This document shows positions 4,480 to 57,703 of a stretch of DNA of 64,000 bases, piece after piece. The translations under genes and the position numbers were made by a program. Under the pieces are notes generated by a model. The model was given only the letters and a program-made list of their open reading frames with translations. It did not search any database and had not been told where the DNA came from. This DNA comes from Deferribacterales bacterium (GTDB lineage Bacteria > Chrysiogenota > Deferribacteres > Deferribacterales > Geovibrionaceae): NCBI GenBank assembly GCA_050251945.1, contig JBFWLW010000008.1:1-64000 (forward strand), in the 5' to 3' direction. Positions within the stretch are counted from its first letter, which is position 1. Each line of letters opens with the position of its first letter.

Positions 4480-4710
4480 CAAACTGATGACAAAGTCAGT
4501 AAAATGCGGGATCGCGTCGTCGATTTATTCGATAAATAGTTTAAAGCGGACTCATTTCAGCAAGCTCGGTACAGAAACATTTGCAAAAATAGGCAAATGT
4601 TTTCAGCCTTCGGCTAGTGCTCCTCGCGAAGACAAAAAACGTCTCTGCGAGGGTTTTAACCCGAAGCAGTCTAATGTAAGTCTGTGTAAATTTAGTTTGT
4701 CAACAACCTG
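4480..4710. mobile_element. 231-bp non-autonomous element (IS1182-like MITE) with 25-bp duplicated hairpin target
   Basis: Imperfect terminal inverted repeats CAAACTGATGACAAA (4480-4494) and TTTGTCAACAACCTG (4696-4710). Exact direct repeat AAGGCGGAGGGCAAACCTCCGCCTG at 4455-4479 and 4711-4735. Confidence 0.8.
4526..4616. repeat. 91-bp TA-bounded dispersed repeat, copy 1
   Basis: 89/91 identical to 14435-14525; sits in the loop of a REP-like arm in both copies. Confidence 0.85.
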
Positions 4711-12191: not shown

Positions 12192-12608
12192 TTATTATAT
12201 TTTTAACAAAATGACCTCGTATCATTTTGTTACTAACGCAAAGCTCAGTCAAACTTCGCTTTGCTCACACTGCGCATGTTTTCATCCATAAATCGGCTGA
12301 AAACATTCTCCGTGAGACACTTCCTGTGTCTTATTATATTTTTAACAAAATGACCTCGTGTCATTTTGTTACCAGCGCAAAGCTCAGTCAAACTTCGCTT
12401 TGCTCACACTGCGCATGTTTTCATCCATAAACCGGCTGAAAACATTCTCCGTGAGACACTTCCTGTGTCTTATTTTATTTTTAACAAAATGACCTCGTAT
12501 CATTTTGTTACTAACGCAAAGCTCAGTCAAACTTCGCTTTGCTCACACTGCGCATGTTTTCATCCATAAATCGGCTGAAAACATTCTCCGTGAGACACTT
12601 CCTGTGTC
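12192..12608. repeat. Tandem array of three 139-bp units, each with four hairpins
   Basis: Units start at 12192, 12331 and 12470 and differ at only a few positions. Internal inverted repeats: TAACAAAATGA/TCATTTTGTTA, GCAAAGC/GCTTTGC, ATGTTTTCA/TGAAAACAT, AGACAC/GTGTCT. Confidence 0.95.
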
Positions 12609-12609
12609 T

Positions 12610-12763
12610 CAGACTGGTGACAAATTGGATTTTACTTTCTATCTCCCCCTTTAGAAAAGGGGGATTAAGGGGGATTTTGATTAAATATCAATCAAATCCA
12701 CCCCAACCCTCCTTTTTCTAAAGGAGGGAGAAAAATGGAAATTACAACTTTGTCAACAACCTG
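12610..12763. mobile_element. 154-bp MITE (IS1182-like ends) with 9-bp target duplication
   Basis: Ends CAGACTGGTGACAAA and TTTGTCAACAACCTG (12/15 complementary). CCTGTGTCT is duplicated at 12601-12609 and 12764-12772. The cargo is a REP-like pair shared with 28581-28671. Confidence 0.8.
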
Positions 12764-20701: not shown

Positions 20702-21527
20702 GCTTCTTGTCTCCATTTGCTTCATAAATAGTTTTCAAATAATAATTAAGTCTGTTTTCAGATCTGTATTTTCCTTTAAGCCCTGTAAGTATCTCAAGAG
20801 CTTTCTTATTGTCGCCTCCGAGATAGTAGGCGAGTCCGGTGTAGAACTTACATTCGTTGTCCGTGCAGGTTGAAAGAACCTCAAGCGCCTTGTCGGGCGA
20901 TTTGAGCCTGAGATACGTCTGACCGAAAAGGAGTTTGCCCTTGTCGTCAAGTTTTGACGCGTCTATTGAGTTGAGTTCCTTAAGCGCCGCTTCCGTCTCG
21001 CCCTTTTTGGCGAGAAGAAGAACGAAGTTCATTCGGGGGACTATCTTTTTATAGTTCTCCGCGCTCTCCGCCATTTTCAGTTTATCTTCAAGCTCTTTTG
21101 CATCCATTCTGCCTGAAATGAAATCCAGATAGATGCCGACCTTGATGTTAAAACTGCTTTCGCTGTCTATAGAGCCTATCAGTTTGTTCTTTTTATAAAA
21201 CTCCATATAGGGCAGGTGTTTATCTGTAACACCTTTATAGATGAAGCTTTCGTCTCTGCTGCCTCTGAACCCGTCTGCAACGTTTTCAAACGTGGAAGCC
21301 GAGCTTTCGGCGCCGACACACGTCACGGCGTTGTGCGCTTCGCACTCTTTCAGAAAGTCTGCGAACAGACTGACGTTAAATCTGTTATTACTGTCAAAAT
21401 ACAGTACAGCGCGGTTCTCGCTTAAAGGTTTTGATGTCTTAAAAACTGGTTTAAGTTCATCCGCCGCCGCCGCCTGAGAAAATATCAGCGCCGCAGCAAG
21501 CATTCCTGCCGGTATTCTCAGTTTCAC
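20652..21527 (-). CDS. Secreted TPR-repeat protein
   Basis: Signal peptide (AAA-AD); TPR helices FGQTYLRLK..KALEVL and YTGLAYYLGG..KALEIL. Confidence 0.75.
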   Translation of the reverse strand: MKLRIPAGMLAAALIFSQAAAADELKPVFKTSKPLSENRAVLYFDSNNRFNVSLFADFLKECEAHNAVTCVGAESSASTFENVADGFRGSRDESFIYKGVTDKHLPYMEFYKKNKLIGSIDSESSFNIKVGIYLDFISGRMDAKELEDKLKMAESAENYKKIVPRMNFVLLLAKKGETEAALKELNSIDASKLDDKGKLLFGQTYLRLKSPDKALEVLSTCTDNECKFYTGLAYYLGGDNKKALEILTGLKGKYRSENRLNYYLKTIYEANGDKKHADEIKLPDNFNIDSE

Positions 21528-24500
21528 TTTTGCCCCTCTATTTTTTCAAGGTTGCGCTGTATCTCAAAAAGATTTTTGAGCACTTCAGCTTCCAGCATCT
21601 TTCTGTTGATCAGACTTCTGCTGTCCCTGAATTTCTTATCGTGATATTTCTCAAACAGGTCTTTCGCCTGCGTTTCGCCATGGCAAACAGAACAGAATTT
21701 CGCTTTAACATCTTTCTTAAGGAAGCTGTTGCTCAGGTCTCCTTCAACGCTGTAAGACGCCGCCATTGTGCCGCCCGCTTTCCAGACGTGGGGATTGTGG
21801 CATGTCTGACATGTGATGGAACCTTCAGCCGAAACAGTTCCCTTATCGTCGAACAGGTTCTCTTTGAATCTCTCCCTATAGGGGAATATCTTGAATATCC
21901 TGTCGTGCGTTATCTTTTCAGGTATTTTTTTATAGCCTACGCCGTCCGCTTTGTGGCAGTCGGTACACATTTCAAACGAGAACGGTGTCTTTCCATCCGG
22001 TTTGTATGCCCACATAAGCCTGTTATCCTTATGGAAGTTGTGGGGTGTGTGACAGGCATAACATACGTTCGCAGCAGCTTTCTTCTTATCATTTTCGTTC
22101 AGATAGTCAAGCTTTGCGAGGTTGTGCTTGGTCATATCCACAAGTTTCTGATCCTCGTGACATGCGAAGCATATGTTCTTTTCGCCCAAATCTCTGAGCA
22201 TACCCTTCTCAGGTCCGTGAGGTTCGTGGCAAGTTGCACACACAATGTTTCCGTCCTGAAGGTATATCTTCATATCTTTTTTCGGCTTCACATTCATCTT
22301 GTGGCTTGACGTGATGGCTGTTTTGGAAGCTATGCCGTCTGTGCTGTGGCAGCTTGAGCATATTTTTTCAAAGTCTTTGCCGTAGGACTTGCTGAAAAGA
22401 TAGTAGCCGCCGTCGCCGTGAACCTCATGACATGCGCCGCATGTATCGTCGGCAGCTTTAAGTTTGGCAACCTTGTCACTGTTCTTTTCAAATTTCTGCA
22501 CGTTGTGCGGTGAAGTTTTCAGAGTTTTCTGATCCTCGTGGCATCCGGCGCAGAAGTTACCGTTAACGGCAGTTATCTTCTTGTCAAGGAAGCTGTTCTG
22601 CACCGTACCCTCGTCACCCTTCTTCGGTCCGTTGTTGTGGACTGTGTGACAGGTCGAGCAGTAGATGAAGTATTCGCCGTCCTTTTGTGTCAGATATTTA
22701 TATTTGTCGTGTGCCTCTATCTTGCCCATCTTGTGTCCGCCGTCCACAGCTTTTTTGTCTGCGGAACCTTTCGGATTGTGGCAAGCGATGCAATTATCGT
22801 CTTTTGTTTTGTATGCGTATTCCACTGTCATCATGTTCACGTTGGTCTTTGCGTTGTGAACGCTGTGACACTGGGCGCATACCGGATCGGTATCCTTCTT
22901 GCGCACGTCGTGATCTGATCCGGCAACCTCTTTCTGTGTCTGGTGACATGCTGAACAGAACGAATCCTGATCGGCAAAGCCGCCCCTCATGAAGTCTTTA
23001 TCCAATGTGCCTTTCTTGGACTGTTTATGCGGATCGTGACAGCTCACGCATGTGAAGGTGCCGTCTTTTGTTGTTTTAAAGTCGCCTGTCATCTGCATTT
23101 TCGTCTTCATGTTGACAGGGTGGGAGTGTTCGCCTATGACCATCTTCTCTGCACTGCCGCCTTTTTTGTGGCAGTCCATACATCCGTCGTTCTCCGGCAC
23201 GGCAAGAAGTCTTTCGCTGTCGCTGTTGTGTACCTTGTGGCATGACAGACAGCTCTTCTCGTTCTTCTTGTCGCCGTGGGAAGTTTTGGCGATCATCTCT
23301 TTCTCTTTGTGACAGGTGATGCAGAGTGTGCCGTTCTGAGCGTCAATGCGAAGAGAATTCTTCTCTTTGCCGTGAACGTCGTGACATGTGGCGCACGTTA
23401 TCTCTGTTTTGCTGTCGTCAGAACCAAGCGTGGTGAAGAATCTTATTATCTTCTGGAACAGAGGCAGTTTTTCATTCTTCGGCATATCCTTTTTCAGGAC
23501 TTTGCCCACTGAGTGATTGAACTTTTTGGTATCGATTATCTTTTTATTGGCTATTCCGCCCTCGGAGTGACATCCGATGCATCCTTTTGTAAGGAGGTCA
23601 CCGTCACCCGCAAGACCGACGGACCAGCCGTGGGGAGCGTGGCAGCTCTGACATGTTCCCGCCTGCTGTGCGGATTTGCCGTCTTTCGTACGGAATCCTT
23701 TAGCAGTCAGCATGTCGTGTTTGCCGCCTACGATATCTTTCTTGTTATTGTGGCATGCGTAGCAGAGTTTGCTTTCTGCGTTGTCTTCAACAAGCAGTCC
23801 TTCCGCTTTTGCCTTGTGGGTGGAGTGGCATGTGGAGCAGATTACTTTTCCGTCCTTGCCGTATTTTCCGCCCTCGTTAACCATCGCCTGCATCTCAGCC
23901 TGTCTTCCGTGTTTCACGTTCACAGGGTGGTTCAGCAGCCCTTTCACATATTCGCCGCTGTTGGCATCAACAACGTTTTCGTGGCAGACGCCGCACACCT
24001 TGCCGCCGTCAAGGGGTTCGATAAGCAGTTTTTCGCCTTTTGGCGAGTGTGCAACGTGACAGCTTTCACAGACAACCTGTCCTTTGCTGCCGAGTTTGCC
24101 GTATCTGGATTTAACGGCAGCCGCCATACCGTCATAACCGCTCTGGGGCGCTTTCAGGGGGTGGCTTATGTTGCCGTCGTGACCTATGTCCTTGTGACAT
24201 GCCATACAGAGCTGTGAGTCGTAGTTCTCCATGCGGAGGAAAATGCTCTTGTCAATTCTGTCGTTTCTGGGATCGCCTGTGGAGTGCGCCGAGTGGCACG
24301 TGCGGCAGGCTATCTTACCTTTTTCAAGGGGGAGATTATTGGGGATGTTCATGTGTTCGGGTATCTTGTCGGAGAGTTTGTGCATACCGCCGGACCATAC
24401 CTGTACGCGGCTGTCGCCGACTGTTCCGTTGTGACAGCTGTAACACATTTTTTCCGCCGCAACCACCTTATCTTTCTGATAAGGAACAACTTCCGTTCCT

Positions 24501-24775
24501 TTCAGGTCGAAGAGGAACTGGGGCATCCATTCATAGTGGCAAAGCGCGCACTCTTTGGATGAATCAGGGTTGCTCTTTGTTATGTCAGCCGCAAAAGCGG
24601 ATGGGGAAGCAAACTCTGAAAATCTGTCAAAAACAGATTGAGATTGCTTCGCTGCGCTCGCAAAGACAGTCTGTCTCTGCGAGGAACAGAGTGACGAAGC
24701 AGTCTCGTTTATCTGAATAAAGCCTGTAAATGCCGACACAATTGTTATAACCAGTGCAAGGAGGAGCTTTTTCAT
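21524..24775 (-). CDS. Giant 28-heme c-type cytochrome (tandem paired-CXXCH repeats)
   Basis: 28 CXXCH motifs counted in 1083 aa, with recurring C..CH..H ... LC..CH units; Lys-rich; N-terminal hydrophobic segment. Confidence 0.92.
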   Translation of the reverse strand: MKKLLLALVITIVSAFTGFIQINETASSLCSSQRQTVFASAAKQSQSVFDRFSEFASPSAFAADITKSNPDSSKECALCHYEWMPQFLFDLKGTEVVPYQKDKVVAAEKMCYSCHNGTVGDSRVQVWSGGMHKLSDKIPEHMNIPNNLPLEKGKIACRTCHSAHSTGDPRNDRIDKSIFLRMENYDSQLCMACHKDIGHDGNISHPLKAPQSGYDGMAAAVKSRYGKLGSKGQVVCESCHVAHSPKGEKLLIEPLDGGKVCGVCHENVVDANSGEYVKGLLNHPVNVKHGRQAEMQAMVNEGGKYGKDGKVICSTCHSTHKAKAEGLLVEDNAESKLCYACHNNKKDIVGGKHDMLTAKGFRTKDGKSAQQAGTCQSCHAPHGWSVGLAGDGDLLTKGCIGCHSEGGIANKKIIDTKKFNHSVGKVLKKDMPKNEKLPLFQKIIRFFTTLGSDDSKTEITCATCHDVHGKEKNSLRIDAQNGTLCITCHKEKEMIAKTSHGDKKNEKSCLSCHKVHNSDSERLLAVPENDGCMDCHKKGGSAEKMVIGEHSHPVNMKTKMQMTGDFKTTKDGTFTCVSCHDPHKQSKKGTLDKDFMRGGFADQDSFCSACHQTQKEVAGSDHDVRKKDTDPVCAQCHSVHNAKTNVNMMTVEYAYKTKDDNCIACHNPKGSADKKAVDGGHKMGKIEAHDKYKYLTQKDGEYFIYCSTCHTVHNNGPKKGDEGTVQNSFLDKKITAVNGNFCAGCHEDQKTLKTSPHNVQKFEKNSDKVAKLKAADDTCGACHEVHGDGGYYLFSKSYGKDFEKICSSCHSTDGIASKTAITSSHKMNVKPKKDMKIYLQDGNIVCATCHEPHGPEKGMLRDLGEKNICFACHEDQKLVDMTKHNLAKLDYLNENDKKKAAANVCYACHTPHNFHKDNRLMWAYKPDGKTPFSFEMCTDCHKADGVGYKKIPEKITHDRIFKIFPYRERFKENLFDDKGTVSAEGSITCQTCHNPHVWKAGGTMAASYSVEGDLSNSFLKKDVKAKFCSVCHGETQAKDLFEKYHDKKFRDSRSLINRKMLEAEVLKNLFEIQRNLEKIEGQK
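24610..24726. mobile_element. In-frame 117-bp decayed REP-carrying element inside the 28-heme cytochrome gene
   Basis: Core 24640-24706 is the same palindromic repeat as 57641-57703. Outer ends CAAACT.. and ..CCTG match the terminal bases of the MITE at 4480-4710. Confidence 0.7.
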
Positions 24776-25656
24776 TTTGTCCCCCTCAGTTCGTATACTG
24801 AAACGGTTCTGGCAAAGCCGTCGACAACAGCCATGTAGCGTCCGTTTATTCTCATGTGTGTAACTGATTCAAAAATTACTTTTTTGCCGTTCTTATCTTT
24901 CAGAACGCCCATATATTTGCCGTCTGCATCGAAATACTGCACGGTTCCGTTGTATCCGTCGCCGACAAAAAGTATTTCACCGTTGAGCAGGGCTATCCCT
25001 GTGGGTCTGTAGAACTGCCCCTTGTCAATACCCCACTGTCCGATGAACTCATAGAACTTGAAATCCTTGGTTATCTTCTGTACGCGGGTTCCCAGAACCT
25101 CAGAAACATAAAGAACGCCTTTTTTATCCATCGCCATCGCAAAAGGATACCAGAACTGCAGTTTGTCCTGTCCATAGCCGCCAACAACGGCTTCCACAGC
25201 CTTTGTCCCCATATGGGTTTTGAGTATCCGGTGGTTGTCGTTATCCGCCGAATAAACGTAGCCTCCGGAAACAACGGCATCGGTGGGGTCATATTTCCCC
25301 TTAAGCCCGTGCGCGCCGAACGAACTGAACTTGTCCAGACCGCCTGTCAGCATGTCCAGAGTGTTTTCTGTACTGTTGCAGAAAAGGAAATAATTGCCGC
25401 TTTTAACAAGGCATGTGCCGCCCTTTAAAAAAGCCTTCTGTGTCGATCTGACAGCCTTTCCGTTTCTGTAAACCGTATACGAACCTGAATAGGCGTCGTA
25501 TATCCCTGTGCTTGAATCGCTTTCGACAACCGCATCTGCCGGAGCGGATTTATCGCCCAGCTTCACTTTATAGAGAAGTGATGCTGTCACCTGGGCAGCA
25601 TCACTTATTGCGGTAATACCAAAAAGCAGTAATACGGCGATTATCTTAATTTTCAC
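24772..25656 (-). CDS. Secreted NHL-repeat beta-propeller protein
   Basis: VYSADNDNHRI, FWYPFAMAMD and GQFYRPTGIA NHL motifs; signal peptide. Confidence 0.85.
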   Translation of the reverse strand: MKIKIIAVLLLFGITAISDAAQVTASLLYKVKLGDKSAPADAVVESDSSTGIYDAYSGSYTVYRNGKAVRSTQKAFLKGGTCLVKSGNYFLFCNSTENTLDMLTGGLDKFSSFGAHGLKGKYDPTDAVVSGGYVYSADNDNHRILKTHMGTKAVEAVVGGYGQDKLQFWYPFAMAMDKKGVLYVSEVLGTRVQKITKDFKFYEFIGQWGIDKGQFYRPTGIALLNGEILFVGDGYNGTVQYFDADGKYMGVLKDKNGKKVIFESVTHMRINGRYMAVVDGFARTVSVYELRGTK

Positions 25657-57640: not shown

Positions 57641-57703
57641 GAGATTGCTTCGCCTGCGGCTCGCAAAGACGTCTCTGCGAGGACGCAAGGACGAAGCAGT
57701 CTC
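57641..57703. repeat. REP-like inverted pair, family 1
   Basis: GAGATTGCTTCG..CTCGCAAAGAC / GTCTCTGCGAG..CGAAGCAGTCTC between convergent genes. Confidence 0.85.

Follow-up and report, generated by a model that had tools for sequence, protein, structure and literature searches.

In-frame insertion of a palindromic repeat dimer into the export leader of a 28-heme cytochrome of Seleniivibrio

Introduction

The multiheme cytochrome gene described here carries, within the leader for its export, a palindromic repeat which elsewhere in the same genome lies mostly between genes. This raises the question of how such a repeat came to be read as protein at this locus, and what has become of the exported cytochrome as a result. 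Fusions of RPE and MITE sequences with genes have been reviewed, as far as the accessible parts of the two articles go (PMC10969869, PMC3184786), while the effect of in-frame palindromic insertions on the protein is left open in the accessible text of PMC10969869 and PMC3733652. The window, meaning the whole 64,000-nt stretch of DNA that was analysed, is contig C8 of a 3.07-Mb genome (G000). The nearest named homologue of the cytochrome gene is from Seleniivibrio sp., and the host is a Seleniivibrio bacterium.

Results

The cytochrome ORF (Table 1) contains 28 CxxCH motifs by count and has orthologues of 1035-1067 aa. The genes around it form a series of multiheme-cytochrome, cytochrome b-like, NHL-repeat and TPR-like members. 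A 19-gene cytochrome cluster has been tentatively linked to metal reduction in a review of Deferribacter (PMC13186404, accessible sections). The start codon is placed upstream of the repeat because of the ribosome-binding site, the overlap of the ATG (24775) with the stop codon of the upstream NHL-repeat gene (ATGA), the position of the start in the orthologues and the lack of any in-frame ATG, GTG or TTG between the repeat and the old cleavage site. A real start downstream of the repeat, the error which could have undone the original prediction for this locus, is thus contradicted.

The insert is real and in frame. One independently assembled contig from run X1, perhaps the source sample, covers positions 24300-25100 with 0 differences, and an independently assembled contig from run X2 (again perhaps the source sample) covers 24300-25017. 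Run X3, from another study, matches 24726-24876 with 0 differences, which takes in 33 nt of the allele-specific part.

Table 1. Features of the cytochrome locus, in positions of the window
Feature	Position	Strand	Details
28-heme c-type cytochrome gene, long-leader allele	21524..24775	(-)	1083 aa; cytochrome c3 / doubled-CXXCH domains
Ribosome-binding site GAGGGGG	24781..24787	(-)	same arrangement in G002 and G004
Block non-homologous to nearest short allele, outer limits	24609..24758	(-)	150 nt for 21 nt; joint 24608-24759 in run X4
Hydrophobic stretch, residues 4-22 (h-region, extended by codons 16-22 from the insert flank)	24710..24766	(-)	19-residue mean hydropathy 2.35
Best new signal-peptidase site A15-F16-T17, then G18 (predicted, weak)	24725..24733	(-)	present in both long alleles
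Repeat unit A of head-to-head dimer	24673..24706	(+)	34 nt
Repeat unit B of head-to-head dimer	24640..24667	(-)	28 nt; 5-nt spacer 24668-24672 to unit A
Unique T-rich flank, residues 47-58, polar linker	24602..24637	(-)	no second copy in genome
Ancestral A-x-A cleavage motif, residues 60-62	24590..24598	(-)	now ~40 residues past hydrophobic core

Relative to the nearest short allele the net gain is 129 nt, or 43 codons. An insert of exactly 117 bp (39 codons) had been proposed, with a gap of about 39 aa expected in orthologues; the gap relative to the short alleles is present but its size is 43 codons, and the 117-bp limits start at the second base of codon 17. The reconstruction of a 23-aa ancestral signal peptide is not supported either, the short leaders being 19-20 aa. 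The central claim that a repeat became coding sequence in a signal peptide is supported by orthologues which do not have the insert. The A-F-A site, placed at residue 62 with the insert, does lie at residues 60-62, and the absence of a target duplication is seen equally at the junction compared with the empty allele.

The repeat dimer (24640-24706), translated in frame, gives residues 24-46 of the cytochrome. Both units begin with TGTC, each on its own strand. They fold weakly on their own, as bulged stems of -4.7 and -2.6 kcal/mol, and the 117-nt segment gives z = -5.8 as RNA and -5.2 as DNA, with 0 of 200 shuffles folding equally well. The pair was correctly recognised as the repeat found at 57641, 54493 and 47198, all of the same family, and none of these three copies lies within an open coding frame.

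The ends of the insert had been likened to those of a MITE. On a matrix of real MITE ends, for which 109 of 244 dimer flanks reach at least 15 bits, they score -8.0 and -9.1 bits, ranking 68th and 75th of 132 non-MITE flanks, and in a set of 2000 random windows these scores are equalled by 29% and 35%. The 117-bp MITE model was dropped, as its ends score like random DNA. A match of 18 of 19 nt between the left end and C4:318218 was taken as chance, this being apparently ordinary coding DNA with no repeat adjoining, and Rfam gave two matches, both sub-threshold and due to chance. No donor copy sharing the flanks of the insert was found in the genome, the best flank identity being 69%. The insert belongs to a second class, consisting of the dimer with unique AT-rich flanks, as at sites which are filled in the congener G005 and empty in its sister G004. 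The gain at those sites is 101-164 nt, a size class shared with the cytochrome insert, and neither terminal repeats nor a target duplication could be seen there.

Codons 7-15 differ from those of G002, the nearest orthologue, with a pS of 0.735 and a pN of 0.48, compared with 0.20 and 0.006 for the mature part, and the hydrophobic core therefore belongs to the foreign or remodelled block. It could be either a diverged old core with the 129-nt insertion behind it or sequence brought in by the insert. An origin of the short alleles by precise excision from the long allele was rejected, because codons 7-15 differ from G002 far beyond the rest of the gene, whereas G002 and G004 have short alleles which align collinearly with each other. 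Two further alignments were set aside as post hoc. One would place what is left of the old h-region in the 3' flank (10 matches over 12 nt), but 10 of 242 other repeat flanks do as well; the other, an alternative 5' alignment, is equalled by 14 of 242.

An exact pattern of the repeat unit occurs 350 times in G000, as against 0 times for a reversed control pattern, and loose matches number 520, as against 19 and 26 in two block shuffles. Profile searching gave 278 loci; head-to-head dimers make up 101 of 271 loci, and tail-to-tail arrangements 4. G005 has 271 units, and the sisters of these two genomes have 110 (G002) and 79 (G004). Across the congeners the number of units varies tenfold (33-350), and each of the two sister pairs examined joins a rich genome with a poor one. 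Tandem arrays of 12-17 alternating units are present at C5:41001-41701, C10:338-1245 and C10:67135-67849 of G000, with no nuclease or transposase gene adjoining.

The resident MITE of G000, of ~140 nt, has the same dimer inside, along with 15-bp terminal inverted repeats and long target duplications in terminators. Members of this family (about 107-240 nt, with imperfect 15-bp ends) are found at 4480-4710 and 12610-12763 of the window and at roughly 80 sites genome-wide; most copies contain the repeat dimer and some contain another hairpin. Directly before the second of these copies lie three tandem 139-nt units (12192-12609), 97-99% alike, with an internal palindrome.

Type I signal peptidase cleaves a few residues past the hydrophobic core. 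The long leader has recognisable n- and h-regions, and the 19-residue mean hydropathy is 2.35 and 2.26 in the two long alleles known (see below), compared with 1.86-2.21 in the short alleles. Possible cleavage sites were scored with a home-made matrix built from 44 rule-picked leaders of G000, for which the training is partly circular. For the old site the two long alleles give 4.7 and 3.9, compared with 12.8-16.7 in seven short homologues. Both nevertheless retain the A-x-A motif, which is their second-best site. The best (-3,-1) site, after T17, scores 8.1 and 7.4, close to the 5th percentile of the 44 training sites (7.8) on this matrix. The idea that a cleaved signal was converted into an anchor is thus consistent with the matrix as regards the stranding of the old site; with the new site at the 5th percentile, a permanent anchor is nearly as likely as cleavage. 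The repeat-coded residues probably remain on the exported cytochrome in either case, because the repeat sits behind the hydrophobic core, unlike in the other five leaders described below. The likely outcomes would be cleavage after T17, leaving ~45 extra residues which include one free cysteine, or retention by the anchor. An AlphaFold2 model was uninformative here (pLDDT 23-40 across the insert, mean 46.7). As for the mRNA hairpin that had been suggested, no regulatory effect was seen, the predicted unpaired probability of the start region being 0.54 compared with 0.52.

A search for further copies within genes had been proposed. Every repeat locus was scanned for a stop-free frame continuous with coding sequence. 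Among the 278 loci of G000, 8 passed, of which 3 lie in leaders (the 28-heme cytochrome, a TolC-family gene and a CusB-like adaptor), 4 have a downstream Met which by eye looks like a normal start, and 1 has a weak coding score. For G005, with 2.11 Mb scanned of ~3.0 Mb, 12 of 148 loci passed; 5 are in leaders (the same two efflux genes, two lipoproteins and one further exported protein), 4 have the start of the orthologue downstream, and 3 were dropped (a 15-nt weak match, a low-score frame with no orthologue and a frame beside an N run). Other copies in coding sequences were found in the two efflux leaders of G000, but no in-frame repeat was detected inside a mature domain in G000 or in the 2.11 Mb of G005. 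All six genes with in-gene insertions (3 in G000 and 5 in G005, two being common to both) thus carry them in export leaders. By a rough rule, genes with export leaders number about 401 of 2347, the leaders amounting to ~1.2% of coding DNA, and the chance of six in six is about 2.5e-5 by gene, a figure that takes kin as independent when they are not. For one of the six, the CusB-like adaptor, translation may begin further downstream (P0063).

The efflux pair (G000 C4:253700-256286, L034; G005 L042) has gained 35 codons in the TolC-family gene and 43 in the CusB-like gene. These inserts are common to G000 and G005 and absent from their respective sisters G002 and G004. In the TolC-type insert, comparison of G000 with G005 gives a pN of 0.11 for the repeat core and 0.59 for the flanks, with no indels. 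For the efflux pair, the matrix gives the old cleavage sites scores of 13.3 and 14.6. In all five other leaders the repeat lies ahead of the h-region, the cytochrome being the sole case in which it lies behind the hydrophobic core, and in those five the repeat would probably depart with the cleaved leader, the old site still being used. The downstream flank of the repeat in these leaders tends to code for hydrophobic residues, with a mean of +0.49 compared with -0.49 upstream. The inserts in the two lipoprotein leaders and the further exported-protein leader of G005 lie at C10:180947-181029, C14:396337-396370 and C14:421021, and G000 is without them; that at C10:180947-181029 is a clean gain of 129 nt relative to G004. 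Three measured in-gene inserts are exactly 129 nt each.

Orthologues of the cytochrome were searched for in 41 genomes, of which 30 matched, with a strong orthologue in 23 other genomes. The leader is short in all 22 with an intact gene start. In G005 the orthologue (L036 / L013, C9:76598-77929) is reduced to the final 11 heme motifs, with unrelated genes in place of its 5' part. That of G002 is 95% identical in mature coding DNA and has a 19-residue leader. The three genomes with 0 repeat units (G007, G008 and G013) have short leaders, so that repeat-free genomes do not carry the segment, as an insertion of the repeat implies. The first CxxCH is at residue 76 in both long alleles and at residues 30-46 in 26 other homologues.

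The cytochrome protein belongs to a 90% cluster with 11 members. A second long allele, P0044 (1082 aa, 2 contigs), has the same insert in another clade. It differs from the G000 protein at 10 of the first 65 residues with no indel; 3 of 20 non-repeat flank residues differ, two replacements fall inside the repeat core, and residues 16-23 and 49-56 are identical. The mature part of P0044 shows 104 differences to the G000 protein and only 17 to the short allele P0045, whereas that of the G000 protein has 19 differences to the short allele P0001. In the tree P0044 groups with the short P0045, P0048 and P0042 (support 100/100) and the G000 protein with the short P0001 (98/99), and on either side of the block each long allele tracks its own lineage within a few codons.

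If the leader had descended neutrally from the time of the species split (dS 0.88, measured to G004 as a stand-in for the P0044 clade), ~16 of the 20 flank residues would be expected to differ; the 3 seen fit a divergence of 0.08-0.15. Either the leader therefore moved between the lineages later or it is constrained at the protein level. The long leader has probably crossed species by short-tract recombination after the split, judging by these divergences, but protein-level selection could equally account for the low flank divergence.

Searches for other carriers of the long leader were made at several levels. A back-translated pattern of the flanks gave 3 matches over the species-genome collection, all by chance in unrelated frames, and a metagenome scan gave at least 3 distant loci among the matches listed. 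A protein search with the leader only returned no match among 1.84 billion representatives, and no NCBIfam model (E 0.01) and no Pfam model above its cut-off was found for the 64-aa leader. When the full leader was compared with G001, G002, G004, G005 and G006, nothing matched except the repeat core and the start region.

The mature domain has 52 synonymous and 9 replacement substitutions on the G000 branch, compared with 53 and 10 on the sister branch (Fisher p = 1.0), changes being assigned with G004 as outgroup and 30 remaining ambiguous. All 28 CxxCH motifs are retained in G000. These counts point to a mature cytochrome that is under purifying selection, with no relaxation or decay. The branch-level signal could, however, reflect a period in which the allele was still short, or recombination between it and short alleles.

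A repeat of this family lies within 500 nt of 8 of 16 small GIY-YIG genes examined in the order, compared with 0 of 7 UvrC-like controls, and repeats are present on both sides of the small gene in G005, G006, G018 and G019. Loci of this kind flanked by the repeat family are L085 (G005 C14:459699), L081 (G006), L080 (G001), L071, L076, L083 and L084. In G006, unit A matches the repeat upstream of the gene at 33 of 35 nt, and unit B that downstream of the same gene at 28 of 29 nt. No small GIY-YIG gene was found in G000, G002 or G004, G000 having a UvrC-sized GIY-YIG frame only, and a search of G000 (99.97% complete by marker genes) for a Y1 (IS200/IS605-like) transposase, PF01797, gave 0 matches. 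In G009 a GIY-YIG gene (L077, C1:248346) lies between hairpins of a different variant, and is bordered by two putative histidine-biosynthesis-like genes; apparently the same intergenic site in G000 (C6:51619-51687) holds a dimer with no gene.

Discussion

On balance, and with moderate confidence, the insert is considered to be a tolerated selfish in-frame insertion. The cytochrome would probably still be exported via residues 4-22, and what the repeat encodes would form an unstructured tail at its N-terminus. Cassettes of this kind would insert chiefly into AT-rich DNA close to the ends of genes and, within genes, would survive almost only in leaders, because these are cut off or loosely constrained. 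In the cytochrome the repeat would have fallen behind the hydrophobic core, with the old A-x-A therefore stranded and cleavage probably shifted to the weak site after T17 or made inefficient. A small Ssn-like GIY-YIG nuclease, whose gene in congeners has these repeats on its flanks, probably moves the cassette, although family searches found neither such a gene nor a Y1 transposase in G000, the most repeat-rich genome with 350 units.

Whether the insert has acquired a use may be judged from the leader and its history. The hydrophobic run is longer and stronger than in the short alleles and no strong cleavage site is left, which would suit a permanent inner-membrane anchor (residues 4-22) with a 40-residue linker, selected in its tethered form and for that reason spread between species. 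Residues 16-23 and 49-56 are moreover identical in the long alleles, while the TolC-type flank drifted neutrally, and the leader was retained though both of its sides track each host lineage. However, sister lineages keep short and strongly cleavable leaders, recent transfer accounts for the conservation with no need of selection, the rate of the mature domain is unchanged, and an amphipathic helix at residues 46-56 is marginal in G000 (shuffle p = 0.04) and absent in P0044 (p = 0.35), so that a selected anchor is held to be rather unlikely. A broader proposal, that the Ssn-associated cassettes are portable signal-peptide modules, captured almost exclusively by export leaders and swapped between Seleniivibrio species in tightly bounded blocks, with the cytochrome turned from a released periplasmic protein into one selected for a tether or a new repeat-coded N-terminal arm, is more speculative and is given little weight. 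That the leader has merely become longer, with the A-x-A at residues 60-62 still cut directly or after an upstream cut, the mature cytochrome unchanged and the insert neutral, would agree with the preservation of this second-best site in both long alleles and with the probable behaviour of the other five insertions, which precede the h-region; yet ~40 mostly polar residues part the motif from the hydrophobic core and its score drops from ~15 to 4.7, and this outcome is decidedly improbable.

The insert might instead be kept as nucleic acid, either as an mRNA hairpin stabilising or tuning the operon transcript or as a target in ssDNA through which an Ssn-like nuclease would alter recombination at the locus, the peptide then being a by-product. 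The hairpin is strong and the TolC-type repeat core is far better conserved than its flanks; in the accessible text of PMC11893778, SsnA cuts beside such ssDNA hairpins and lowers transformation in Neisseria. Against this, the accessibility of the start region is unaltered, P0044 has two replacements in the repeat core, no Ssn-like gene was found in G000, and conversion among hundreds of copies could explain the conservation of the core, making such a role highly improbable. That the long allele is a mis-assembly, or a dead allele that is not exported, is scarcely credible: the two runs spanning the insert may be from the source sample, but it is contained whole in a single contig of an independent assembly and in part in data of another study, the second allele is in frame although diverged, and selection is not relaxed. 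Mis-assembly is already largely refuted.

For the preferred reading, a tolerated selfish insertion, what is of interest is less the insertion of palindromes into genes, which is known, than the restriction to leaders, the place of the repeat after the hydrophobic core and the sharing across species. The long and short alleles form matched pairs on mature domains less than 2% different (19 and 17 of ~1017 residues, in two clades), and the effect of the repeat on export, cleavage and localisation is therefore directly testable. The confinement of all six cases to leaders points to signal peptides as an entry door of selfish DNA into proteins. It also serves as a warning for annotators that long leaders of this type are real rather than mis-called starts.

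Comparison with known palindromic elements

In a literature search by titles and the opening lines of abstracts, with subscription papers and preprint supplements mostly outside it, no report was found of repeats in signal peptides or of a bias towards them, nor any description of GIY-YIG genes with REPs. The term 'signal peptide' does not occur in the accessible text of PMC10969869. The resident MITE has the same dimer inside, but the cytochrome insert is without its 15-bp ends, its target duplication and its terminator target. A RAYT-type REPtron differs in that its associated Y1 transposase gene is missing from G000.

With the Ssn system the likeness lies in the single-domain GIY-YIG gene of congeners (~96-103 codons), flanked on both sides by the repeat, and in the spacing of catalytic residues, Y7, Y18 and E65 of the G005 protein corresponding to Y6, Y17 and E64 of SsnA. 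The repeat differs in that it misses the published SRM pattern, which the insert does not match even when 2 mismatches are allowed and which occurs exactly 13 times across G000 and 0 times around the G005 nuclease gene, and in that G000 lacks the nuclease gene. It was therefore regarded as SRM-like with another specificity and not filed as SRM; by analogy it may work like an SRM of such other specificity. In the accessible text of Chenal et al. (2025, PMC11893778), cutting of ssDNA next to its hairpins is demonstrated for SsnA and mobility is hypothesised only, and NTS are seldom in genes (2% in N. meningitidis).

CGTC-tagged REPs were described by Di Nocera et al. (2013) as palindromic units of 20-40 bp with CGTC, often TGTC or CCTC, at one terminus, a perfect 8-9 bp stem and a 4-5 nt loop, in families CGTC-1 to -4, forming head-to-head dimers and having in-gene copies, many N-terminal cases of which are suspected of being mis-annotated starts (PMC3733652, accessible text). 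Four supplementary files of that article gave no match, the consensus sequences themselves lying in a figure, and 'Deferribacter' is absent from its main text, the phylum (that of the Deferribacterales) being a point of difference from both CGTC REPs and RPE. Like the CGTC REPs, the cytochrome units are tagged (with TGTC), short (28 and 34 nt), of high copy number, mostly intergenic and arranged as head-to-head dimers. The cytochrome repeat may resemble CGTC-4 and RPE-4. As with both groups, few copies are read in frame in genes, adding 20-30 residues or more, and, as with RPE, the insert is in frame in a conserved gene and absent from its orthologues. The cytochrome start, in contrast to the suspected starts of CGTC cases, is fixed by translational coupling and by the orthologues. 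The family further departs from both RPE and CGTC REPs in that its in-gene copies are found only in export leaders and none in mature domains, and in that either side of the repeat in the cytochrome insert has 20-50 nt of unique sequence, with bases of the target lost in exchange.
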